This document shows, piece after piece, positions 2,398 through 20,125 of a stretch of DNA of 64,000 bases. Made by a program: the position numbers and the translations under genes. How positions within the stretch are numbered: position 1 is the stretch's first letter; every line of letters starts with the position of its first letter. Location: positions 73,342-137,341 of the forward strand of contig CAKPHG010000001.1 in assembly GCA_934157035.1 (NCBI GenBank). Reading direction: 5' to 3'. Under the pieces are notes generated by a model. It was given only the letters and a program-made list of their open reading frames with translations, was not told where the DNA came from and made no database searches. Source of the DNA: an uncultured Clostridia bacterium. GTDB lineage: Bacteria; Bacillota; Clostridia; TANB77; CAG-508.

Positions 2398-4101
2398 ATG
2401 GCTTTTGACGGAATAGTTTTAAAATCTGTAGTATCAGAATTAAATACTTGTTTAATAAACGGAAAAATAAATAAAGTATACATGCCTAATTCAAATGAAA
2501 TTTTATTAGGTATTTATTCTGGTGGAAAAAATTATTGTTTACTTTGTAACATCTCATCAAATAGTTATCGCATACATTTAACTACAACTAGCAAGCCAAA
2601 TCCATTAAATGCTCCTAATTTTTGTATGCTACTTAGGAAACATTTAGTAGGTTTTAGAATTGTAAATATTTCTACATTAAATTTAGAAAGAATTGTTACA
2701 ATTGAGTTAGAAGGCTATAACGAACTAAATGATAAGTTAAGAAAAAAATTAATAATTGAACTTATGGGAAAACATAGTAATATAATTTTGTTAAATGAAA
2801 GTAACAAGATTATAGATAGTATCAGGCATTTAGATATTTCTTCTGGTTCTCTTCGTGATATTTTACCTGCACGAGAATATATATTGCCAAATAATGATAC
2901 TAAGTTAGATTTTTACAATGCTTCTAAAGAAGATTTTATTAATATTATTAATAGCGATATTAATAAATCAGTTACCAATAATTACATTGGTTTTAGTAAT
3001 AGTTTTGTATCTTCTATTTTAGAAAGTCTAAATATTTCTAATGATGATTTTTCAAAAAACGACCTTTCTACTTTATATTATACTATTAAAACTATTTTAC
3101 TTAACATTGAAACTAACAATGTTAAATTAATAAATTATAATACTAATGATTATGTAATAACTAATTCAAATACTAAATCTTTACAAGTTAATTTTTTCTT
3201 AGACGATTTTTATAGTCAAAAAGAAGAAAAAGATAGTATTAATACTTATAGAAACAATCTTTTAAAATTAGTTCTAACTGCATTAAAAAAGATATCTAAA
3301 AAACTTGACAATATAAACATAAAATTAAAAGAATGTGATAACATGGATAAATATAGAATTTATGGTGAACTTATAACTTCTAATTTGTATAAATTAGACT
3401 TTAATCAAAATGCCGAAAGTGTTGTTTTAGAAAATTATTATGACAATAATAACAATATCACCATTCCTTTAGATAAAACAATTTCTATTTCTTACAATGC
3501 TAAAAAATTCTTTAAAAAATATCATAAATTAAAAAATACTTTAGAAATTGTAAGTGTTCAAAAACAAGACACTGAAAAAGAAATAGATTATTTAGAAAGT
3601 ATAGTTTATGAATTAGAAAATGCTAACTCAATTTCTGATTTAGATGAAATTTATTTAGAAATTTCTGAAAATGGTATTTTCAAAGGAAAAGAAAAATCTA
3701 ATATTAAAAAAAATAAAGTTAATAAGAAAAAAGTTCACGATGAATATGAACCAATTATCTATACTGTAGATGGTTTTACTTTATATGTTGGAAAAAATAA
3801 TAAGCAAAATGATTATATAACTACTAAACTTGGAAAGAACGAAGATTATTGGTTTCATACTAAAGATATTCGTGGAAGTCACTGTTTACTTAAATGTAAT
3901 GGTAAAAATGTAAAAGAACATACCCTTGTAGCTTGTTGCCAAATAGCTGCATTTCATAGCAAAGCAAAACTTTCTTCAAATGTACCCGTTGACTATTGCT
4001 TTGCAAAATTTGTAAAAAAACCTAGTGGAAGTAAACCCGGTATGGTCATTTATACTAACAATAAAACAATGAATGTCAATCCTACTTCAAAAGCTCTTTA
4101 A
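2398..4101 (+). CDS. rqcH: Ribosome quality control protein RqcH (NFACT / fibronectin-binding FbpA family)
   Basis: N-terminus MAFDGIVLKSVVSELN...NAPNFCMLLRKHLVGFRIV...LMGKHSNIILL closely follows B. subtilis YloA/RqcH. C-terminal NFACT-R/DUF814 block (YTVDGFTLYVGKNNKQNDYIT...WFHTKDIRGSHCLL). SD AAAGGAG lies 8 nt upstream. Confidence 0.8.
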   Translation: MAFDGIVLKSVVSELNTCLINGKINKVYMPNSNEILLGIYSGGKNYCLLCNISSNSYRIHLTTTSKPNPLNAPNFCMLLRKHLVGFRIVNISTLNLERIVTIELEGYNELNDKLRKKLIIELMGKHSNIILLNESNKIIDSIRHLDISSGSLRDILPAREYILPNNDTKLDFYNASKEDFINIINSDINKSVTNNYIGFSNSFVSSILESLNISNDDFSKNDLSTLYYTIKTILLNIETNNVKLINYNTNDYVITNSNTKSLQVNFFLDDFYSQKEEKDSINTYRNNLLKLVLTALKKISKKLDNINIKLKECDNMDKYRIYGELITSNLYKLDFNQNAESVVLENYYDNNNNITIPLDKTISISYNAKKFFKKYHKLKNTLEIVSVQKQDTEKEIDYLESIVYELENANSISDLDEIYLEISENGIFKGKEKSNIKKNKVNKKKVHDEYEPIIYTVDGFTLYVGKNNKQNDYITTKLGKNEDYWFHTKDIRGSHCLLKCNGKNVKEHTLVACCQIAAFHSKAKLSSNVPVDYCFAKFVKKPSGSKPGMVIYTNNKTMNVNPTSKAL

Positions 4102-4119: not shown

Positions 4120-4192
4120 TTAAACTATTAGGGACGGGGCAATTTAGTTTAGCTTTTTGTTAAACTAAATTGCCCCGTCCCTAATAGTTTAA
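4120..4192. repeat. Perfect 32-bp inverted repeat (arms 4120..4151 and 4161..4192, 9-nt loop). A bidirectional terminator-like hairpin between the convergent rqcH and 4189..4434 genes. Each arm is a copy of a GC-rich element that also occurs at 41197..41230.
   Basis: ttaaactattagggacggggcaatttagttta / gctttttgt / taaactaaattgccccgtccctaatagtttaa. Arms are exact reverse complements. The right arm overlaps the stop codon of the minus-strand ORF. Confidence 0.7.
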
Positions 4193-4434
4193 TCTCTTAC
4201 TTTATATTCTATCTTTTCCATAAATGGAAACATTTCATATACTCTTTTTTTAGTAAGCATTTCCATTACTGGATGAGGATTTTTTTCATGAATTGATAAA
4301 AGTTTTTGTGTATAACAATTATCTGATGTTTTAAATAACATATATCTATTTCTTACATAGGTATAATATAATTCATATCCTTCATCTAATTCTTTTTCAA
4401 ATCTTTCAAATGTATATTTTTCTTTTCCGTCCAT
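4189..4434 (-). CDS. Hypothetical small protein (81 aa) co-oriented downstream of ligA
   Basis: ORF with an 8-nt gap to the ligA stop. No recognisable motif. Confidence 0.45.
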   Translation of the reverse strand: MDGKEKYTFERFEKELDEGYELYYTYVRNRYMLFKTSDNCYTQKLLSIHEKNPHPVMEMLTKKRVYEMFPFMEKIEYKVRD

Positions 4435-4448
4435 TTTTTCTCCCTTTT

Positions 4449-6446
4449 CTATTTTAGCATATCTTCAAATTCTTTTTCCGTTATAATAGTTACTCCTAAT
4501 TCTTGTGCTTTTGTAAGTTTTGAACCTGCATCTTCACCTGCTAGTACATATGATGTTTTTTTAGATACAGAAGATGATGTTTTTCCACCATATTTTTCTA
4601 TTAAATCTTCTGCTTCTTTCCTAGAATATTTTTCTAACGCTCCTGTTAATACAAAGATTTTACCTTCAAAACGATTATCTATATTATCTTCTTGCAAACT
4701 TTCCATATTTACACCTAAATTTTTAAGTCTTTTAATAATATCTTTAGTTTGCTCTTGTGCAAAAAATTCTATAATGTTATTTGCTGTAATTTCTCCTACA
4801 TCATCTGTTAAAGCTAAACTTTCAAAACTTGCATTTGAAAGTTCTTCCATTGTTTTATATTTTTTAGCTAAAACTTTTGCAGCTTTAATTCCTACTTGTT
4901 TTATTCCTAATGCATTTATTACATTGAATAAGTCTTGTTTTTTACTTTTCTCTATTGAGTCTATTAAATTCTGAGCAAACTTCTTTCCATTTTTCTTTAA
5001 TGATGCAACATCTTCTAAACTTAAAGTATAAATATCTGCTATATTTTTTATTAACCCTTTTTCTATTAATTGTTCTACTATTTTATATCCCAAGCCATCT
5101 ATATCCATTGCTTCTTTAGAAACAAAATGAACTATACTTCTTAAAAGTTGTGCAGGGCATTCTATTCCTATACACCTTGTTGCAGCTTCTCCCTGTTCTC
5201 TTACAGCTTGTGCTCCACATACTGGACAAACTTTAGGCATTTCAAAGTCTTTTTCGTTTCCTGTTCTTTTCTCTTTTATAACTTTTATTACTTCTGGTAT
5301 AACATCACCTTGTTTTTGAATAACAACTGTGTCTCCAATTTTTAAATTTTTTTCTTTTATAAAGTCTTCGTTATGAAGTGTTGTTTTAGATATTGTTGAG
5401 CCGGCAACTTTTACTGGTTCTAATATTGCCATTGGTGTTATTACTCCTGTTCTACCTACTTGGCAAACTATATCTTTTAATATAGTTTCTTTTGCTTCCG
5501 GTGGATATTTGTAAGCTATTGCCCACTTTGGTGTTTTATATGTTGTTCCTAATTTTTCTCTAAATGAAAGTGAATCTACTTTTACAACTGCACCATCTAT
5601 GCCAAATGATAGATTTTCTCTGTCTTCTCCTATTTTATTAATTGCTTCTTCTACTTCTTGTTGATTTTTGCATAATATTCTTACAGGATTTACATTAAAT
5701 CCTAATTTTTCTAAGTAATTTAGTTCATCATAATGCGAATTAAATTTGCCATCATCCCATTTTTGTACATTAAATATAAATATATTTAATGGTCTTTCTT
5801 CTGTTACTTTTGAATTTAGTTGTCTTAAAGAACCTGCAGCTGCATTTCTTGCATTTGCAAATAATTTTTTTCCTAATACTTCTTGCTCTTCGTTTAATTT
5901 TTCGAATTCTTTTGTCCCAATAAAGACTTCTCCACGTACAGTTATTGTTACTTTTTCGTTTAATACTTTTGGAATACTTTTTATTGTTCTTAAGTTATCT
6001 GTAACATCTTCTCCTATTAAGCCATTTCCTCTTGTTGCACCTCTTACAAACACACCATCAACATATTCTAAAGCTGTTGATAAACCATCAATTTTAGTTT
6101 CTACAACATAACGTAACTCTTCATTTTCTTCTATTGCTTGTTTTTTTATTCTATCATCAAACTCTCTTAGTTCTTCAAAAGAAAATACATCTTGAAGACT
6201 TTGAAGTGGTACTTCATGAACTACTTCTTTAAAACCTTCTTTAACATGTCCACCTACTTTTTGAGTTAATGAATCTTTAGTTATAAGATCTGGAAACTCC
6301 TTTTCTAAAGCTTTTAGTCTATTCATCATCATATCATACTCGTAGTCTGTTATTTCTGGCTTGTCCTCATCATAATATTTATTGGCATAATACTCTAATT
6401 TTTCTCTTAATTCTTTTATCTGTTTTTTAGCTTCTTCTAAATTCAT
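4449..6446 (-). CDS. ligA: NAD-dependent DNA ligase LigA
   Basis: 665 aa. Adenylation motif ETKIDGLS (KxDG). Zn-finger CPVCG...C. HhH and BRCT C-terminus. SD AGGAGGAAAAAATG. Confidence 0.95.
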   Translation of the reverse strand: MNLEEAKKQIKELREKLEYYANKYYDEDKPEITDYEYDMMMNRLKALEKEFPDLITKDSLTQKVGGHVKEGFKEVVHEVPLQSLQDVFSFEELREFDDRIKKQAIEENEELRYVVETKIDGLSTALEYVDGVFVRGATRGNGLIGEDVTDNLRTIKSIPKVLNEKVTITVRGEVFIGTKEFEKLNEEQEVLGKKLFANARNAAAGSLRQLNSKVTEERPLNIFIFNVQKWDDGKFNSHYDELNYLEKLGFNVNPVRILCKNQQEVEEAINKIGEDRENLSFGIDGAVVKVDSLSFREKLGTTYKTPKWAIAYKYPPEAKETILKDIVCQVGRTGVITPMAILEPVKVAGSTISKTTLHNEDFIKEKNLKIGDTVVIQKQGDVIPEVIKVIKEKRTGNEKDFEMPKVCPVCGAQAVREQGEAATRCIGIECPAQLLRSIVHFVSKEAMDIDGLGYKIVEQLIEKGLIKNIADIYTLSLEDVASLKKNGKKFAQNLIDSIEKSKKQDLFNVINALGIKQVGIKAAKVLAKKYKTMEELSNASFESLALTDDVGEITANNIIEFFAQEQTKDIIKRLKNLGVNMESLQEDNIDNRFEGKIFVLTGALEKYSRKEAEDLIEKYGGKTSSSVSKKTSYVLAGEDAGSKLTKAQELGVTIITEKEFEDMLK

Positions 6447-6597
6447 TTTTTCCTCCTAGGAAACTTTAAAATAAAATGTTTCCAAAATTTCTTTTTTTAT
6501 TATATACAAAAGATAAAAAAAAATAAATAGTATTTTCTAATATCCTATAAAATTTTAATTTTTATTTATTCTTTTCTTATAACTATAGGACTTTATT

Positions 6598-7134
6598 CTA
6601 TGCATAAAACCCATATAAAATTTCTTCTTCATTTACATTATTTTCTCTCATATAATCATCACATCTTTTTTCTAATAATTTGAAATTGCAACATCTATCT
6701 TGCAAGTCTTTGTTGGCATGTCCATTTGAAATTATATAATACAAATTTCTTGCTCTATTTTGGATTCTTAAAGTATTTAAATTAATCCACTTAATTTGAT
6801 TTGTAATCATATTTTTATATTTTTTGTCCTCTATTTTATCTATTTCTATTTTTTCTAAATAACTACTTGGTATAGGTATCATATTATTTAAATTTATTCC
6901 ACCTAATCTTCCACTATCTATTTTCAAAAAATCTTGCATATTTTTCATACTTAAATGTTTCTTTTTTGGTGATGTTAAAGGTGCAAAAAAATTCTTACCA
7001 TTTACATTTAATATAACTCCTATAAATGGTCTATTCTCCTTTTCATTTTCTATGCATGGTATTTTAGGCTCATAATAATGTAAATAATTACAATATTCTA
7101 TATCTGCTTTGTATAAATCCATATTACTATGCAT
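6598..7134 (-). CDS. ToxN/AbiQ-family endoribonuclease homologue (type III TA toxin family). Likely true start at the Met at 7122 (MDLYKADIEY...).
   Basis: MDLYKADIEYCNYL...RPFIGVILNVNGKNFFAPLTSPKKKH...GGINLNNMIPIP aligns motif-for-motif with ToxN (MKFYTISSKYIEYL...AFIGIVLEIQGHKYLAPLTSPKKWH...LGLINLKFMIPI). No ToxI-like tandem repeats are visible upstream. Confidence 0.7.
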   Translation of the reverse strand: MHSNMDLYKADIEYCNYLHYYEPKIPCIENEKENRPFIGVILNVNGKNFFAPLTSPKKKHLSMKNMQDFLKIDSGRLGGINLNNMIPIPSSYLEKIEIDKIEDKKYKNMITNQIKWINLNTLRIQNRARNLYYIISNGHANKDLQDRCCNFKLLEKRCDDYMRENNVNEEEILYGFYA

Positions 7135-7214
7135 AATTAAAACATTTAAAATATTTTAATTATGTGCTCCTCTCTTTTTAGTTTTTTAGGCATTATTAAT
7201 AAAAGTCAAACTCT

Positions 7215-7424
7215 TTATAAATTTGCACTTTTGTGTATTATTCTTTTTATTATAACTAATTTTTCTTTTTCTTGGATTTCATAAAAGATTAAAAAATTTT
7301 TATAGATTTTAAATCTGTTTTTAGTTTTTTTATATTTAGCCCCTATATATGGAAAATAAGATAAATTATAAATCGATTTTTCTATATTTATTTTGAAATT
7401 TTCTGCTGCTATTTGATTTTTCAA
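7215..7424 (-). CDS. RelE/ParE-superfamily type II toxin (69 aa)
   Basis: YKNFLIFYEIQEKEKLVIIKRIIHKSANL matches the RelE/ParE C-terminal signature (YRI.Y.V......V.ILRI.HR). Sits 52 nt downstream of a small antitoxin-like ORF. Confidence 0.65.
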   Translation of the reverse strand: MKNQIAAENFKINIEKSIYNLSYFPYIGAKYKKTKNRFKIYKNFLIFYEIQEKEKLVIIKRIIHKSANL

Positions 7425-7476
7425 TTTAATTTTAATATAGTTTGAAATTCGATTTATATTCTTTATCGATAATTTG

Positions 7477-7653
7477 CTATATCCTACGATGTAGTTTATA
7501 ATATTTTTCTCCTAAAAGTTTCCCCCAAACTTCATCATGTGAATATAGTTTATTTCCATTTCTTTTTTGTTCTTCATCTACTTCTGCTAGTAGTCTGTCT
7601 ATTCTATCTTCTTCTTCTTTTGTAAAAAATGCTTCATTTCCTACAATTTGCAT
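7477..7653 (-). CDS. Putative type II antitoxin (58 aa, below the ORF-track length cut-off)
   Basis: Manual translation gives MQIVGNEAFFTKEEEDRIDRLLAEVDEEQKRNGNKLYSHDEVWGKLLGEKYYKLHRRI. Strong SD GGAAGGAGAAAATATTT-ATG. Lies immediately upstream of the RelE/ParE-like gene. An acidic small protein is typical of Phd/RelB/ParD-type antitoxins. Confidence 0.45.
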   Translation of the reverse strand: MQIVGNEAFFTKEEEDRIDRLLAEVDEEQKRNGNKLYSHDEVWGKLLGEKYYKLHRRI

Positions 7654-7683
7654 AAATATTTTCTCCTTCCATTTTTTTGTTTA

Positions 7684-7712
7684 ATTCTATATTATTTTTA
7701 CCTATAAGTCAA
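7684..7712 (-). promoter_or_regulatory. Sigma-A-like promoter for the antitoxin-relE-toxN unit (TTGACT-17-TAGAAT)
   Basis: Minus strand reads TTGACTtataggtaaaaataataTAGAAT, about 30 nt upstream of the antitoxin SD. Confidence 0.4.
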
Positions 7713-7794
7713 TTATTTTTATGTAAATTATCAAAGAAGTTTTCGACAAATTTCACCATAAAACATTATCTTATAGCAGTGTCATCTATTAAGA

Positions 7795-7830
7795 AAAAGT
7801 AGCAATTAGGGACTTTCCAAAATTGCTACT
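7795..7830 (-). terminator. Intrinsic terminator of mutS (stem GTAGCAATT/AATTGCTAC followed by U-run)
   Basis: agtagcaattagggactttccaaaattgctact lies directly after the mutS stop at 7841, with a T-run on the minus strand. Confidence 0.7.
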
Positions 7831-7840
7831 TTCTTATTTT

Positions 7841-10456
7841 TTATGACATTTTCTCTTTAATTTTAACCAATGTGTTTAATGCATCTATTGGTGTTAATAC
7901 GTTTAAGTCTATTTTGTCTATCTCTTGTGCTAGTTCTGCTAATTTATAGTTGCCCATATCTAATTGTCCTTCAACTTGCTTTTTGCTTTCTATTTGTTTT
8001 CCGTTTAAGATATTTTTTCTTTCTAATGAGCGTAATATTTCATTTGCTCTTTTAGTTACGTCTTTTGGAACACCTGCTAAGCGCGCAACATGAACACCAT
8101 AACTTTCATCTGTTCCACCATTTACTATTTTTCTTAAGAAAATGATGTCTTCTCCTTTTTCTTTAACAGCTATAGAATAATTTTTTATTCCTTCTAACTT
8201 GTTTTCCAAGTCTGTTAATTCATGGTAATGTGTTGCAAATAGTGTTTTTGCTCCACATCTTTCTTTATCTGCTATATATTCTGCAACAGCCCATGCAATA
8301 GAAAGTCCATCGTATGTAGAAGTTCCTCTTCCTATTTCGTCAAGTATTACTAAACTATTTGAAGTTGCATTTTTTAGTATTGTTGCTACTTCCATCATTT
8401 CTACCATAAAAGTACTTTGTCCCATGCTTAAATCATCTGAAGCACCAACTCTTGTAAATATTTTGTCTACAACTCCTATTTTGGCGTAACTTGCAGGAAC
8501 AAATGAACCTATTTGAGCCATTAGTGTAATTAATGCTACTTGTCTCATATATGTAGATTTACCAGCCATGTTAGGTCCTGTAATTATTGCAAGTCTTGAA
8601 TCGCCTTTATCTAAATATGTATCATTTTGAACAAAGCTTCCTGATGGTAGCATTTTTTCAATAACAGGATGACGTCCATCTTTTATATCTATTACTCCAC
8701 TATTATCAACTATTGGTTCTACATAGTTCATGTCTTCTGCAACTTGTGCTAACGAGCATAGAACATCTAATATAGAAATTACTTCTGCTGATTTTTGTAT
8801 TCTTCTTATTTTTCCTTCTATATCATCTCTTATTTCAACAAACGCATTATATTCTAAGTTTATAACTCTTTCTTCTGCACCTAAAATTTGATTTTCTAAA
8901 TTTTTAAGTTCTTCTGTTATGTATCTTTCACCATTTGTTAATGTTTGTTTACGAATATATCTGTCTGGCACTAAATCCATATTTGATTTTGTTACTTCTA
9001 AATAATATCCAAATACTCTGTTAAATCCTATTTTTAATCCTTTTATTCCTGTTTGTTCTCTTTCTTTTGCTTCTAGTTCAATAAGCCATGTTTTTCCTTG
9101 TGTTGATGCTTTTTTTAACTGATCTATTTCTTCATTATAGCCTATTTTTATTAAGTTTCCTTCTTTTATTGACATTGGTGGTTCATCTACAATCGCTTCT
9201 TCTATTAAGTCATGAATATCTGTTAATTCGTCTAAATTCTCATATAGATGTCTTAATAATTTTGCATTTGTATTTTCCAATACTTTTTTAACTAAAGGAA
9301 GTTGCTTTGTTGAATTTTTAAGAGAAATCATATCTCTACCAGTTGCATTTCCATACGCTATTCTTCCTGCTAGTCTTTCCATATCATAAACTTTCTTAAG
9401 AGCCTCTATAGCATCCCCTCTTAAAATTATATTATCTTTTAGCTCTTTTACAGCTTCTAATCTGTTATTTATCTCCCATACATCAACTAATGGGTCGTTA
9501 AGCCATCTTCTAAGCATTCTTCCTCCCATTGATGTAGAAGTTTTATCCAAAACCCATAAAAGTGTACCTTTTTTTGATTTATCTCTCATTTTTTCTGTTA
9601 TTTCTAGGTTTCTTCTTGCGCTAATATCTAATGACATATATTTTGTAGTAGTATAAACTATTATTTTATTTATATGGTCTAAATTAGTTTTTTGTGTTTC
9701 TATTAAATAATCTAATAATCCATTTATTGAAGATACTATTAATTCTTTATCTTCTAAGGTTTCTATTTTTTCTTCATGGTCATTTACAAATAAATAGTTT
9801 TGTAATAATTTTTCTGTATTTTTTGAAAAAGCTTCTTCTTTTACTCTTGAAATATATACTTCAAAACGTTCTTTTATTTTAGATATTTCTTCTAAAGAAT
9901 CATACATGAAAGGATTTACTATTATTTCTGCAGGATTAAATTTAGAAATTTCATCTAATAGCTTTGGAAAATTATTGTTTTCAGCAATTTGTGTTGTTCT
10001 AAAATCACCTGTTGAAACATCGCAAACACTTACACCATAATATAACCCTGTTTTATATACACTCATTATATAATTGTTTTTCTTTTCATCTAATAAATTG
10101 CTTTCTATAACAGTTCCTGGCGTTACTACACGAATAACTCCTCTTTTAACAATTCCTTTTGCTTGTTTTGGATCTTCTAATTGTTCACAAATAGCAACTT
10201 TATAACCTTTTTCAATTAGCTTTGCAATATATGTATCTGCAGCATGAAATGGAATTCCACACATTGGCGCACGTTCTTCTTGTCCACATAGCTTACCTGT
10301 AAGTGTTAACTCCAATTCTTTTGACGCTTTAATTGCATCATCAAAAAACATTTCATAAAAGTCACCTAAACGATAGAATAATATACAATCTTGATATTCT
10401 TCCTTTGTTTTTAAATATTCTTGCATCATAGGTGAAAATTCTGATTTTTCTGACAT
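7841..10456 (-). CDS. mutS: DNA mismatch repair protein MutS
   Basis: 871 aa. Walker A GPNMAGKSTYMRQ. Mismatch-binding N-terminus (GDFYE..F.DDA). DEIGRGTST. HTH C-terminus. Confidence 0.95.
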   Translation of the reverse strand: MSEKSEFSPMMQEYLKTKEEYQDCILFYRLGDFYEMFFDDAIKASKELELTLTGKLCGQEERAPMCGIPFHAADTYIAKLIEKGYKVAICEQLEDPKQAKGIVKRGVIRVVTPGTVIESNLLDEKKNNYIMSVYKTGLYYGVSVCDVSTGDFRTTQIAENNNFPKLLDEISKFNPAEIIVNPFMYDSLEEISKIKERFEVYISRVKEEAFSKNTEKLLQNYLFVNDHEEKIETLEDKELIVSSINGLLDYLIETQKTNLDHINKIIVYTTTKYMSLDISARRNLEITEKMRDKSKKGTLLWVLDKTSTSMGGRMLRRWLNDPLVDVWEINNRLEAVKELKDNIILRGDAIEALKKVYDMERLAGRIAYGNATGRDMISLKNSTKQLPLVKKVLENTNAKLLRHLYENLDELTDIHDLIEEAIVDEPPMSIKEGNLIKIGYNEEIDQLKKASTQGKTWLIELEAKEREQTGIKGLKIGFNRVFGYYLEVTKSNMDLVPDRYIRKQTLTNGERYITEELKNLENQILGAEERVINLEYNAFVEIRDDIEGKIRRIQKSAEVISILDVLCSLAQVAEDMNYVEPIVDNSGVIDIKDGRHPVIEKMLPSGSFVQNDTYLDKGDSRLAIITGPNMAGKSTYMRQVALITLMAQIGSFVPASYAKIGVVDKIFTRVGASDDLSMGQSTFMVEMMEVATILKNATSNSLVILDEIGRGTSTYDGLSIAWAVAEYIADKERCGAKTLFATHYHELTDLENKLEGIKNYSIAVKEKGEDIIFLRKIVNGGTDESYGVHVARLAGVPKDVTKRANEILRSLERKNILNGKQIESKKQVEGQLDMGNYKLAELAQEIDKIDLNVLTPIDALNTLVKIKEKMS

Positions 10457-16664: not shown

Positions 16665-18587
16665 TTACTCTGTTACTAATTTGTTACTAGACTCATATTT
16701 GCTCATCCATATTCCTTTTAAATTCTTACTTCCGTCTTCTCCACTTGGTGTAAATGCTGGATGCACTATAAAGTTCTCTGGTAAAGTATCTCCATACAAA
16801 TCTTTTTCCATTGGCTTATTGTCTAAATCTATAAATATAATTTCTATTTCTTTAGTTGCTTCATTTATACTATAAGCATATCTAGGAATCCATACCCACC
16901 ATGCTTCTAATCCATTTCCTGTTGTTTTTATATTTGCCCATACTTTATTTGGATAAGAATACCATGTATTATCATTATTTATTGTATCTAAATTTGCATC
17001 TTTTAGTAATACTTCACTTGTAAATGTATTTGTTGATTTATCATAAAGTTCTATATATGTATAGTTTTGGTCAAATCCTGTCATATCTGGTGCATAACAT
17101 TTGTAAGCCATTTGTGACTGGTCTGTAACTGTTACGTTACTAGTTTCATATTTACTCATCCATATTCCCTTTAAATTCTTACTTCCGTCTTCTCCGCTTG
17201 GTGTAAATGCTGGATGTACTATAAAATTAGAAGGGAGTGTATCTCCATATTTTTCTTTTTCAAATGGTTTATTGTTCAAATCTATAAATATAACTTCTAC
17301 TTCTTTAGAAGCTTCATTTACACAATAAGCATATCTAGGAACCCATACCCACCATGCCTCTAATCCAGAACCTGTAGTTTTTACATTTGCCCATACTTTA
17401 TCTTTGTATGAATACCATTCATTATTATTGTTTATTGTATCTAAGTTCGCATCTCTTAATAATACTTGACTTGTAAAAGTTTCTGATGTTTTATCATATA
17501 ATTCTATATATGTATTATTTTTATTAAATCCTGTTAAATCAGGTGCATAGCAAATATTTCCTCTTCCTTCTTGTTTTGTTACATCCACATTACTAGACTC
17601 ATATTTACTTACCCATATTCCTTGTAAGTTTTTACTTCCATCTTCTCCACTTGGTACAAACGCTGGATGAAGTTCATACCCTTCTGGAAGTTCTGTATAC
17701 TTTGTTCCTATTGGCTTATTATTTAGATCTACAAATATAACATCCATATTTTTATCTTCTAATTTGTAAGCATATCTAGGAACCCATACCCACCATGCTT
17801 CTAATCCATTTCCTGTTGTTTTTATATTTGCCCATATTTTATTTTTATAACTATCTAATACATATATTTTATCTTCTTCTAATATTTTACTTTGTTTTCC
17901 ATTTTGAATATACTCTGTTACTGGAATTTCTTTTAAGTCTGTTAAATCATCTTCATTGTAATATTCCATATATGTAGAATATTTATTAAATCCATTCATA
18001 TTTGGACTATACCAACCAATATCTTCATATATTGTTATCTTTGGTTCATCTTCTATTTCTGGACTCTCTTTTTGTGTTTCTTGTTGACCTTCTCCATTTA
18101 ATGTATGATGCCTTTTTCCAAAATATTTTTCTCCTTTTACATCATAAAGTTGTATTGTATCTGTATTTATTATATATTCTCTTTTTGTTTTAATTTTATT
18201 TCTGTCTATATAATACAAGTTTAAAGTTGTTATATCATCTGTACCACTTATTGACTGGATTTCTGCCTTTAAAGTTTCTTGTAAGCCATCTATTTCTGAT
18301 GATTGGAGTTTATTTGCAACTGGTAAATTATCTACATTTGAAGCAAGTATTTCTGCCAATATACTATCTGCTTCTTTATTAAGTTTGTATGTTTGAACAG
18401 CTTCTTCTACTTGTCTAAATCTACTTTTAAAACTTGCTTCTTTTGCTTTTTCTACTATTCCTTCTTGTCCAAATAATATATTTATACTTACCCCTGCTAA
18501 AATTATTAATATAATTATTGTTATTACTAGAGCTATAAGGGTTATACCTTTTTTATCTTTTAAAATTCTATCACCTATTTTTTTCAT
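16665..18587 (-). CDS. Large prepilin-signal-like (class III signal, lacking Glu5) protein with 3.5 tandem ~150-aa repeats. Minor-pilin/pseudopilin-like or membrane-anchored surface protein.
   Basis: N-terminus MKKIGDRILKDKKG|ITLIALVITIIILIILAGVSI resembles the KG/FTLIE prepilin motif but has Ala at +5. C-terminal repeats carry KxWANxKTTGxGLEAWWVWVPRYAY...HPAFxPSGEDGSKNLxGIWxSKYExSN...CYAPDxTGF...YIELYDK...WYSY. SD GAGGAATCAAAATG. Confidence 0.6.
   Translation of the reverse strand: MKKIGDRILKDKKGITLIALVITIIILIILAGVSINILFGQEGIVEKAKEASFKSRFRQVEEAVQTYKLNKEADSILAEILASNVDNLPVANKLQSSEIDGLQETLKAEIQSISGTDDITTLNLYYIDRNKIKTKREYIINTDTIQLYDVKGEKYFGKRHHTLNGEGQQETQKESPEIEDEPKITIYEDIGWYSPNMNGFNKYSTYMEYYNEDDLTDLKEIPVTEYIQNGKQSKILEEDKIYVLDSYKNKIWANIKTTGNGLEAWWVWVPRYAYKLEDKNMDVIFVDLNNKPIGTKYTELPEGYELHPAFVPSGEDGSKNLQGIWVSKYESSNVDVTKQEGRGNICYAPDLTGFNKNNTYIELYDKTSETFTSQVLLRDANLDTINNNNEWYSYKDKVWANVKTTGSGLEAWWVWVPRYAYCVNEASKEVEVIFIDLNNKPFEKEKYGDTLPSNFIVHPAFTPSGEDGSKNLKGIWMSKYETSNVTVTDQSQMAYKCYAPDMTGFDQNYTYIELYDKSTNTFTSEVLLKDANLDTINNDNTWYSYPNKVWANIKTTGNGLEAWWVWIPRYAYSINEATKEIEIIFIDLDNKPMEKDLYGDTLPENFIVHPAFTPSGEDGSKNLKGIWMSKYESSNKLVTE
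16668..17990. repeat. Intragenic tandem DNA repeats (~450 bp x ~3) encoding the protein repeats of the 16665..18587 gene
   Basis: Near-identical stretches begin at ~16690, ~17150 and ~17600 (e.g. catatt(t/c)gctcatccatattcc(t/c)tttaaattcttacttccgtcttctcc(a/g)cttggtgtaaatgctggatg). Confidence 0.7.
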
Positions 18588-19536: not shown

Positions 19537-20125
19537 CTTTCTTACTTCCTTTCTTTAATATATATAACATACTACAAATAATATGTACTATTTTTATTTT
19601 GATTATACTATATAGCTCTATATTGTACTCATTTTTTTGATTATATATTGGATTCACTTTATAATATATCTTTTTTATTTCTTTTTTGTTTGTTACAAAT
19701 GGTAGCAATATAGAAATAATACTTGCAACACTTCCAACAATATAGCTTGTACTTACAACATCTATTGTTCCTATATCTATTCTTAAATTTAGACTTTTTA
19801 GCTTAACTTTAAGCATTTTTATAGCTCTAAATATATATTTTTTATTTGGTATTTTATTTTTTATTTTCTTATAATCTATTTTTTCTAGTTTTTTACTAGA
19901 ATAAAGCTTTCTCATTTTTTTACTATTTAAATTTGTCCAAAATATAGGAATTCTCCCCAGAAACAATAACTTAATTTTTACTTTATAACTTCCATTTCTT
20001 TCTTTATTTTTTAAGTTTGTTATTTTCATATTTTGTATTTGTATATTTATCGTTGAAAGTACAATAATTGTTGTTAAAAATGCTATTACAACTAATATAG
20101 ATAAAAAAATAAAAACTAATATCAT
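19490..20125 (-). CDS. YtfI-like (DUF2953) sporulation membrane protein, overlapping ytfJ start by ~47 nt
   Basis: N-terminal TM. Lys-rich. The ytfI-ytfJ pairing is conserved in spore formers. Family call is by context and composition. Confidence 0.5.
   Translation of the reverse strand: MILVFIFLSILVVIAFLTTIIVLSTINIQIQNMKITNLKNKERNGSYKVKIKLLFLGRIPIFWTNLNSKKMRKLYSSKKLEKIDYKKIKNKIPNKKYIFRAIKMLKVKLKSLNLRIDIGTIDVVSTSYIVGSVASIISILLPFVTNKKEIKKIYYKVNPIYNQKNEYNIELYSIIKIKIVHIICSMLYILKKGSKKDDRSSNRRTYAYSNE

Follow-up and report, generated by a model that had tools for sequence, protein, structure and literature searches.

Type III toxin-antitoxin (TA) systems are defined by a ToxN-like RNase and a cis-encoded repeat RNA. 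Can a genome keep an intact toxN gene without that RNA and, if so, on what terms? This question is raised by the interval between mutS and ligA in a 64-kb stretch of DNA from an uncultured Clostridia bacterium (contig CAKPHG010000001.1). We refer to the whole stretch as the window and use its positions as coordinates throughout; labels such as L001 denote homologous loci. Between mutS (7841-10456) and ligA (4449-6446) lie three minus-strand reading frames in the same orientation, and all three of the frames reported in a preliminary description of this DNA are indeed present. The one nearest to ligA, toxN (6598..7122, minus strand), encodes a 174-amino-acid (aa) endoribonuclease of the ToxN/AbiQ family, without a ToxI array. 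Our analysis indicates that it is an intact gene of a monophyletic ToxN branch that lost the ToxI RNA. Searches covered 4 kb on either side of each homologue and, for the window's own genome, the 64 kb.

An intact RNase of the ToxN/AbiQ family

The preliminary description had recognised ToxN/AbiQ motifs in a protein encoded at 6598..7134. These motifs are present in the translation, and profile searches place the protein in the family: the reading frame matched the Pfam profile ToxN_toxin (PF13958) over its entire length (E = 7.6e-49; 166.4 bits against a cutoff of 25; profile positions 1-159 of 159) and the AbiQ model of PADLOC with E = 1.8e-38. While the frame itself stands, its start is most likely ATG 7122 rather than 7134, as homologues, gene callers and the Pfam alignment agree. 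Searched against the Protein Data Bank (PDB), a profile of ToxN and its homologues retrieved ToxN chains with E values from 1e-33 to 1e-36 (4ATO, 1e-36; 2XD0, 2e-34; 7D8O), and AbiQ (4GLK) with 3e-19. The same four structures (2XD0, 7D8O, 4ATO and 4GLK) were the best Foldseek matches (TM 0.73-0.76) of an AlphaFold2 (AF2) model with a pLDDT of 91.9 and a pTM of 0.88.

In ToxN of E. coli, the catalytic and RNA-holding residues are K33 (R in some clusters), T52, S53, K55, Y110 and Q117 (PMC8860590). They align with R31, T50, S51, K53, Y102 and Q109 of the window protein. Across 81 aligned sequences, each of these residues is either fully conserved or at least 90% so, and 30 columns of the alignment, the catalytic ones included, are invariant.

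A distinctive feature is the C-terminus. Residues 158-174 (M..NNVNEEEILY...; coding region 6601..6651, minus strand) form an acidic tail that marks a tail-bearing ToxN clade and that is predicted to be ordered (AF2 pLDDT 95 for residues 161-170). The corresponding motif, ...M..N.[ILV].EE[ED][ILV]LY..., occurs in the window protein, in all 28 ToxI-less loci introduced below and, by motif search, in 84 of 120 listed homologue clusters, as compared to none of 50 distant loci that bear arrays. Ten further positions separate the ToxI-less clade from both array-bearing groups. Among them are R15H, K16Y, K/S126N and R/K129Y, amounting to a loss of three or four basic residues, and these substitutions would fit a relaxed or altered binding of RNA. 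Separately, one locus (L054, 4001-4720) encodes a 240-aa ToxN homologue with a long C-terminal extension and no detectable ToxI array.

ToxI is missing from the window and from a whole ToxN clade

The islet had been described as free of tandem repeats, and every search that we ran bears this out. Neither Tandem Repeats Finder (TRF) nor a second repeat finder detected tandem repeats in 6300-8000 whose period exceeded 10 nt; no array with a 30-45-nt period exists anywhere in the 64-kb window; and Rfam returned no match at the locus. From 35 ToxI units of homologous loci, in which two pseudoknot stems seem to covary across the aligned units (judged by eye, uncounted), we derived a covariance model that scored held-out arrays at 39-52 bits, with L033 reaching 52 bits. 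The same model gave at most 13.5 bits anywhere in the 64-kb window, nothing adjoining toxN, and nothing in 28 loci of the close clade. An nhmmer profile that included the units of the nearest array-bearing relatives was likewise without a match.

The comparison rests on a genome scan with the ToxN alignment, comprising 80 loci from species-representative genomes. As a control, TRF recovered an array in 50 of 52 loci whose ToxN is 40-49% identical to the window protein (34-41 nt, 2.2-3.3 copies), situated 50-250 nt upstream of toxN. As metagenome assemblies of the same kind did yield arrays, their lack in the clade is not explained by assembly collapse. One locus, L063, has a single ToxI-like unit only (39 bits).

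The loci without arrays (L001-L027 and L037, at 53-95% identity, with L026 at 46-47%) form one clade in a neighbour-joining tree, apart from the array-bearers. Just outside this branch stand P0089 and P0094 (49-51% identity), both of which possess 33-34-nt arrays of 3.2 copies. That these basal relatives carry arrays implies that ToxI was lost inside the family and is not merely undetectable.

We considered whether the acidic tail substitutes for ToxI. The initial correlation was perfect (28 of 28 ToxI-less loci with the tail, 0 of 50 array-bearing ones), but the strict form of this idea is ruled out by P0089 (L103) and P0094 (L104), which have both the tail and the arrays. It is further weakened by close relatives behind a phage integrase that lack tail and arrays alike.

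toxN is fixed at the mutS-ligA junction and under purifying selection

In 23 of the 28 loci, toxN adjoins mutS, ligA or both (both in 15, ligA alone in 5, mutS alone in 3), and toxN occupies the mutS-ligA interval in four further metagenome lineages as well. Thirteen loci with a full-length LigA match show a gap of ~70-320 nt between toxN and ligA; in L014, L015 and L017 the LigA match is restricted to the distal part and lies 1.2-1.8 kb downstream, and L027 has another gene after toxN. Independent assemblies of the window's species are identical at this locus.

A LigA protein search for relatives devoid of toxN was uninformative, its best 120 clusters all being at least 97% identical. For a sampling of relatives unbiased with respect to toxN, the handle was a small conserved open reading frame (ORF) downstream of ligA. 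All lineages with the mutS-ligA arrangement in this sampling (P0262, P0318 and P0271) have toxN, and it is absent from three lineages whose ligA has other upstream neighbours. P0024, found by its ToxN sequence, exhibits the same mutS-toxN-ligA synteny. Distances between ToxN proteins track those between LigA proteins (Mantel r = 0.80; 0 of 5000 permutations as high; slope 1.6).

The preliminary description regarded the islet as a small defence or addiction insertion in a conserved backbone, and named ubiquity of its genes among relatives as the observation that would speak against this. This view holds for an ancient insertion only: at least 23 species-level genomes have the cassette fixed at this locus, where it co-diverges with ligA, and it is absent where ligA has other upstream neighbours. 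Ubiquity among relatives was found for toxN, but not for the neighbouring ParDE-like pair.

The gene is under purifying selection, with pairwise dN/dS values of 0.01-0.16 in 17 comparisons. Its frame is intact in 28 of 28 ToxI-less loci, in the other ToxI-less metagenome loci except L097, and in the listed full-length members of the 139-member cluster to which the window protein belongs. An apparent truncation in strain L082 turned out to be a scaffold gap of Ns and no mutation. In L097 (2884-3412; also L098), a close relative, parDE is cleanly deleted and the islet promoter abuts toxN; here toxN has a 1-nt insertion (…GGAAAACTTCGGTGG…) that leaves a 76-aa product (NLC87365.1), found on 12 contigs.

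Beyond the mutS-ligA junction, array-less clade members adjoin valS or follow a phage integrase at a distance of 29 nt, and neither kind has a partner gene. The latter arrangement is seen in L099, L100 and L101, where the integrase spans 2099-2971, toxN starts at 3001 and a Gp3-like phage gene adjoins; the encoded ToxN proteins have neither tail nor array and are 56-61% identical to the window protein. This configuration suggests a mobile form of the ToxI-less clade. Viral contigs in IMG/VR yielded distant ToxN relatives only, with up to 46% identity. Additional ToxI-less toxN paralogues occur at L016 (~1660-2240), L019 (3515-3973) and L025 (3404-3967), in genomes that also have a copy at mutS-ligA. 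A conserved ORF of ~152 aa precedes each of the three on the same strand, 28-34 nt upstream of toxN. Its sole family match is to SpoVT_C (GAF-like), below threshold, and it is a candidate protein partner of ToxN.

The neighbouring ParDE-like pair decays while toxN persists

Upstream of toxN, the first of the two other frames is a 58-aa acidic, antitoxin-like ORF (7477..7653, minus strand) with a good Shine-Dalgarno sequence (SD). It overlaps the start of the ParE frame and is called by gene callers. Its description as antitoxin-like is supported by position, whereas the sequence offers sub-threshold similarity only: DUF6290 (E = 0.004; 17.9 bits, cutoff 27) and RelB_antitoxin (E = 0.02; 15.1 bits, cutoff 50), in both cases covering just the C-terminal part. 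No DNA-binding domain was detected in it. The homologue at L091 matched DUF6899 alone, with 18 bits (cutoff 27).

The second frame (7215..7511, minus strand) belongs to a ParE/RelE-family toxin. A RelE/ParE toxin had been placed at 7215..7424, and the family assignment stands (PF05016 ParE_toxin against the 7215-7466 frame: E = 5e-10; 40.2 bits, cutoff 23), but the 69-aa ORF listed there is a truncation without a canonical start. The frame is open from 7511, following an in-frame stop at 7512-7514, and contains no ATG, GTG or TTG before TTG 7424; gene callers skip it. Where the window has GTA, its sister species L004 and L005 start with GTG and encode a 90-aa ParE (E = 2e-11). An ATT at 7502 lies 6 nt after AGGAG, and non-canonical initiation there is possible. 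The frame is probably a pseudogene, or else translated from this ATT.

Arranged by the state of the pair, the loci constitute a decay series. L091 retains an intact cassette consisting of a 71-aa ORF, a 104-aa ParE and ToxN. In L004 and L005, ParE begins with GTG; its start is lost in the window, L001 and L003, and the gene is frameshifted in L002. The antitoxin-like ORF is kept next to a broken ParE in L006 and L007, while a 3' fragment of ParE is all that is left in L008, L037, L009, L010, L012, L014, L015, L017 and L027. Nothing of the pair is detectable in L011, L013, L018, L020-22, L026, L087, L097 and L123. Pooled pN/pS values are 0.38 for ParE, 0.14 for toxN and 0.07 for ligA. Among the sister species, nucleotide diversity across the locus is lowest in the 58-aa ORF. 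At least 15 lineages have an intact toxN but no intact antitoxin-like ORF; the two genes are not co-retained as a protein antitoxin and its toxin would be. Taken together, the series indicates that the ParDE-like pair is ancestral at this locus and decaying in most lineages.

Several lineages have a gene on the opposite strand (223-247 aa; no family match) that separates mutS from the ParDE-like remnant, ~0.4-1.3 kb upstream of toxN in L006, L008 and L037 and at 823-1527 in L091, implying that the junction has taken other insertions.

A conserved promoter and a structured leader precede toxN

The islet promoter proposed in the preliminary description (7684..7712, minus strand) consists of TTGACT at -35 (7707-7712), a 17-nt spacer and TAGAAT at -10 (7684-7689), scoring 10 of 12. 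Promoter-like sites in the region as a whole are at chance level (14 found versus 12.9 expected). This one, however, is part of a block, CATAAA..TTGAC[AT]-17-TA[AG]AAT, that is kept in 22 mutS-ligA loci, and its conservation upstream of toxN suggests that the promoter is probably real. With the loss of the intervening genes, the block comes closer to toxN, its distance falling from 609 to 73 nt. That the promoter is kept meanwhile argues that selection maintains expression of toxN from it, and that ToxN is independent of the antitoxin-like and ParE proteins.

About 25 nt upstream of the promoter block is the motif AAATTTGTCGAAAAC (7739..7753, minus strand), which is kept in the window, L009, L010, L027 and L123 and degenerate in L097. 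The window holds four matches with at most two mismatches, as opposed to 0.49 expected, of which three looser copies are located at 19929, 30256 and 59436. The motif may be an operator, another regulator-binding site or an UP-like element. A candidate antisense promoter inside toxN (plus strand, 6713-6740, 11 of 12) was discarded: it falls in a variable part of the protein and is not conserved elsewhere, and promoter-like counts are at chance.

With respect to translation, toxN had been reported to have no recognisable SD. We do find an SD-like sequence, GAGAGGAG (7167..7174, minus strand), 44 nt upstream of ATG 7122 and set apart from it by a hairpin; in other lineages the equivalent GAAAGGA is ~4-8 nt from the toxN ATG. 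The hairpin is a perfect 33-nt AU structure (7132..7164, minus strand; 15 bp, 3-nt loop) that buries ATG 7134. It folds with a dG of -11.3 (z = -3.85), which none of 200 shuffled sequences equalled, and it resides in a ~40-nt extra stretch specific to the window's species group and absent from other lineages. It is single-copy in the window, which disfavours a repeated mobile element. Once folded, it would put the SD ~11 nt from AUG 7122. A similar arrangement of SD, hairpin and AUG is known from gene 38 of phage T4.

Further upstream, a weak hairpin followed by UUUUAUU (7201..7232, minus strand; dG -7.8, z = -2.4) spans the ParE stop codon and contains TTGACTTTTATT, a motif kept in L001-L008, L013 and L037. 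It may act as a leaky terminator or attenuator ahead of toxN. In type III systems, a terminator between the antitoxin repeats and the toxin gene sets the ratio of RNA to toxin; the hairpin here has no repeats ahead of it. The earlier statement that the islet has no intervening terminators needs qualification on account of this hairpin and its U tract. The strong terminator of mutS (7794..7834, minus strand) is outside the islet and separates mutS from it: a 14-bp stem enclosing a small inner stem-loop, then a U run (dG -24.8 kcal/mol, z = -6.5; 0 of 200 shuffles folded equally well). A consensus terminator scan missed this structure because its loop exceeds 8 nt.

How ToxN may be tolerated without ToxI

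What, then, restrains this RNase? On balance, we lean towards ToxN being a stand-alone RNase, independent of its neighbours and maintained by selection. It would then be neither the toxin of a type III pair nor a toxin held by a neighbouring protein antitoxin. The gene would probably have entered the mutS-ligA junction of ancestral AT-rich gut Clostridia as the last gene of a cassette (promoter, antitoxin-like ORF, parE, toxN) and would have been inherited vertically ever since, expressed from the conserved islet promoter. Point mutations and deletions that spared the promoter and toxN would have eroded the ParDE-like pair in most lineages. Judging by its conserved residues, the enzyme is predicted to be catalytically active, and self-toxicity may be avoided by intrinsic attenuation or by re-specialisation, the weakest step of this proposal. 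In the window's species group, the AU hairpin between SD and AUG may damp translation or render it dependent on structure. The role would be that of a constitutive RNase of narrow specificity, acting in RNA processing or against phages.

A fuller version of this proposal holds that the ToxN clade is independent of an RNA antitoxin, a domesticated and constitutive chromosomal gene restrained by its acidic tail together with a less basic surface, or else by an unlinked partner. We put it forward tentatively, as something short of an even chance. If true, it would provide the first demonstration that a type III toxin can persist and work in the absence of ToxI.

Several points weigh against a stand-alone enzyme. 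A fully active ToxN that cuts A-rich motifs should badly harm a genome of ~27% G+C, and some restraint must exist. Several lineages have a near-consensus promoter and a well-placed SD for toxN, which weakens low expression as a general explanation of how the protein is tolerated. The parDE segment is unusually conserved in the window's species group (pi 0.004-0.028; pN/pS 0.22-0.38 in the window's sister species), and the pair may still function there or have been disabled recently. L097 could mean that toxN is harmful in that lineage once the intervening genes are gone. Finally, the search coverage may leave room for an inhibitor, RNA or protein, that is encoded elsewhere.

The last point leads to the alternative that survives best, to which we assign a real but minor chance: ToxN could be a genuine toxin neutralised by an RNA or protein from another locus, be it a distant ToxI array, a structured RNA without repeats or a TifA-like protein. 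The intact active site and the strong selection on the gene are in keeping with this, and the strong promoter and SD signals of several lineages call for restraint of some kind. The conserved 152-aa ORF that precedes the paralogues at L016, L019 and L025 could act in trans; the window, however, contains no homologue of it, nor anything ToxI-like within its 64 kb. To our knowledge, all characterised type III antitoxins are cis-encoded, which also counts against an unlinked one. A precedent for a protein that binds and inhibits ToxN is TifA of phage T4 (PMC10853763).

An outside chance remains for a cis-acting RNA without repeats, serving as antitoxin or regulator in the leader and formed by the 3' remnant of ParE (AATTTTTTAATCTTTTATGAAATCCAAGAAAAAGAAAAA) or by the 33-nt hairpin. 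The parE end next to toxN does survive the decay and is nearly identical in lineages whose toxN dS is saturated, and the hairpin is far stabler than shuffled sequence. Yet neither is universal: the leaders of L011, L018, L020-22, L026, L087, L097 and L123 have no detectable ParE remnant or shared motif, and the hairpin occurs in a single species group. That the remnant is conserved can be accounted for by strong codon bias together with recent, independent decay, and no pseudoknot-like covariation is available. The earlier suggestion of control by a non-repeat RNA is accordingly unlikely for a linked, conserved RNA, given that the leaders between promoter and toxN are unrelated between lineages; an unlinked RNA may exert such control.

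The preliminary description also raised a hybrid type II/III module, in which the 58-aa or ParE-like protein would neutralise ToxN in the window's species. This has a slim chance at best and is at odds with the comparative data. In its favour, the genes were ancestrally linked in an operon behind one conserved promoter; among sister species, no part of the locus has diverged less than the 58-aa ORF, although ParE lacks a start codon; and L097, which has lost parDE, has a frameshifted toxN. Against this, toxN remains intact and under purifying selection where the pair is broken, reduced to a 3' fragment or gone: with dN/dS of 0.01-0.06 in L008 and L037, which have no antitoxin ORF; likewise in L009, L010, L012, L014, L015, L017 and L027, with a ParE fragment only; and in L011, L018, L020-22, L026, L087 and L123, with nothing left. 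Such a neighbour is missing altogether from relatives that adjoin valS or follow an integrase, and the 58-aa ORF matches antitoxin models below threshold only.

Lastly, that toxN is a functionless, decaying remnant of a former toxIN locus is hardly credible and is effectively refuted by the selection analysis: the frameshift in L097 and the displaced SD of the window's group point that way, but the dN/dS values of all 17 comparisons, the 30 invariant columns with the catalytic residues among them, the conserved promoter and the frame intact in 28 of 28 ToxI-less loci indicate that, of the earlier suggestion of a toxin-only remnant, 'toxin-only' is apt and 'remnant' is not.

Other features of the locus and its relatives

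Downstream of toxN, folding revealed no terminator-like structure 3' of the gene (z = +0.94). Shortly after its stop codon lies a promoter-like sequence for ligA, TTGTATATAAT (6499..6509, minus strand), preceded by CTATTTATTTTTTT. This block is kept in most lineages examined and is the sole conserved element between toxN and ligA, where a search for a conserved hairpin came out negative. In one lineage, the ligA leader (L020, 4565-4629; L022, 2488-2549) features a 31-nt repeat in two copies directly after toxN and downstream of the ligA promoter-like block. Its unit is a hairpin (GTCYCA..TGRGAC) with GAAAU in the loop; the repeat is limited to this lineage, with a diverged version in L021.

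Downstream of ligA, an 81-aa ORF (4189-4434, minus strand) belongs to no Pfam family. It is found at 65-100% identity in 266 clusters and is syntenic with ligA across the bacterial group, including lineages without toxN. On the mutS side, that gene is called as two ORFs (430 aa and 474 aa) in L123 (625-3349; P0024 lineage) and may be split or frameshifted there; the neighbourhood is reported to be alike for the other 23 contigs read. Elsewhere in the window, a 453-nt tandem repeat (16683-17669; 2.2 copies, 81% identical) lies inside a 640-aa ORF (16665-18587, minus strand) and presumably reflects a repeated protein domain.

Comparison with known systems

Repeat-less ToxN members seem not to have been described before, as the 2012 survey of type III systems covers loci carrying antitoxin repeats; in the literature searched, we found no description of a repeat-less or orphan ToxN or of a clade of them. 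Delimiting such a branch makes it testable how ToxN is tolerated without ToxI, and what it is kept for. The answer bears on the domestication of toxins, on type III evolution and the exchange of antitoxin types, and on how gut metagenomes are annotated, where many PF13958 genes receive the label 'type III TA toxin' by default.

Among the closest known systems is ToxIN of P. atrosepticum, B. thuringiensis and E. coli (2XD0/2XDB, 4ATO, 7D8O), with which the window gene shares the PF13958 family, the fold and the catalytic set (T-S-x-K plus R/K, Y and Q). Classic arrays of this type (33-41 nt, 2-3.3 copies, 50-250 nt upstream) are present in relatives of the window protein at 40-51% identity. In contrast, the window and 28 clade loci have neither the tandem direct repeats of ~31-46 nt directly upstream that characterise ToxIN as type III nor a single ToxI-like unit. 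A type III toxin is inhibited by its processed RNA pseudoknot within a cyclic complex, and the analysis identified no candidate for such an RNA. While ToxIN is borne on plasmids or mobile elements, toxN of this clade is chromosomally fixed and vertically inherited, stands as the last gene of a protein-coding operon or directly behind a promoter, and encodes the conserved acidic C-terminal tail along with the ten clade-specific substitutions. AbiQ/antiQ of Lactococcus lactis (4GLK) resembles the window protein in the PADLOC match (E = 1.8e-38) and in fold (TM 0.75), but its sequence similarity (E = 3e-19) is lower than that of the ToxN chains; and AbiQ depends, according to the literature, on upstream antiQ repeats, which the window gene does not have.

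To ParDE and RelBE, the two upstream frames bear likeness in that a small acidic ORF overlaps the start of a ParE_toxin frame under one promoter, with the intact version (71 and 104 aa) preserved in L091. They differ in that the window ParE has no canonical start codon, that the antitoxin-like protein has no recognisable DNA-binding domain and matches its families below threshold only, and that the pair is decaying in most lineages. The resulting deletion series provides a clean example of differential decay within one operon. TifA demonstrates that ToxN can be neutralised by a protein (PMC10853763), the premise of the hybrid module; it is, however, a counter-defence protein of a phage and not an antitoxin encoded by the host, and no homologue of it came up here, where no search was aimed at it.

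A further parallel is offered by orphan or domesticated toxins, a general concept for solitary homologues kept without a cognate antitoxin (for example, TASmania; PMC6504116). As in those cases, toxN of the window is a chromosomal toxin-family gene without a detectable linked antitoxin. Here, by contrast, the orphan state extends to a whole monophyletic clade of type III toxins, with purifying selection, a fixed locus and a conserved promoter.

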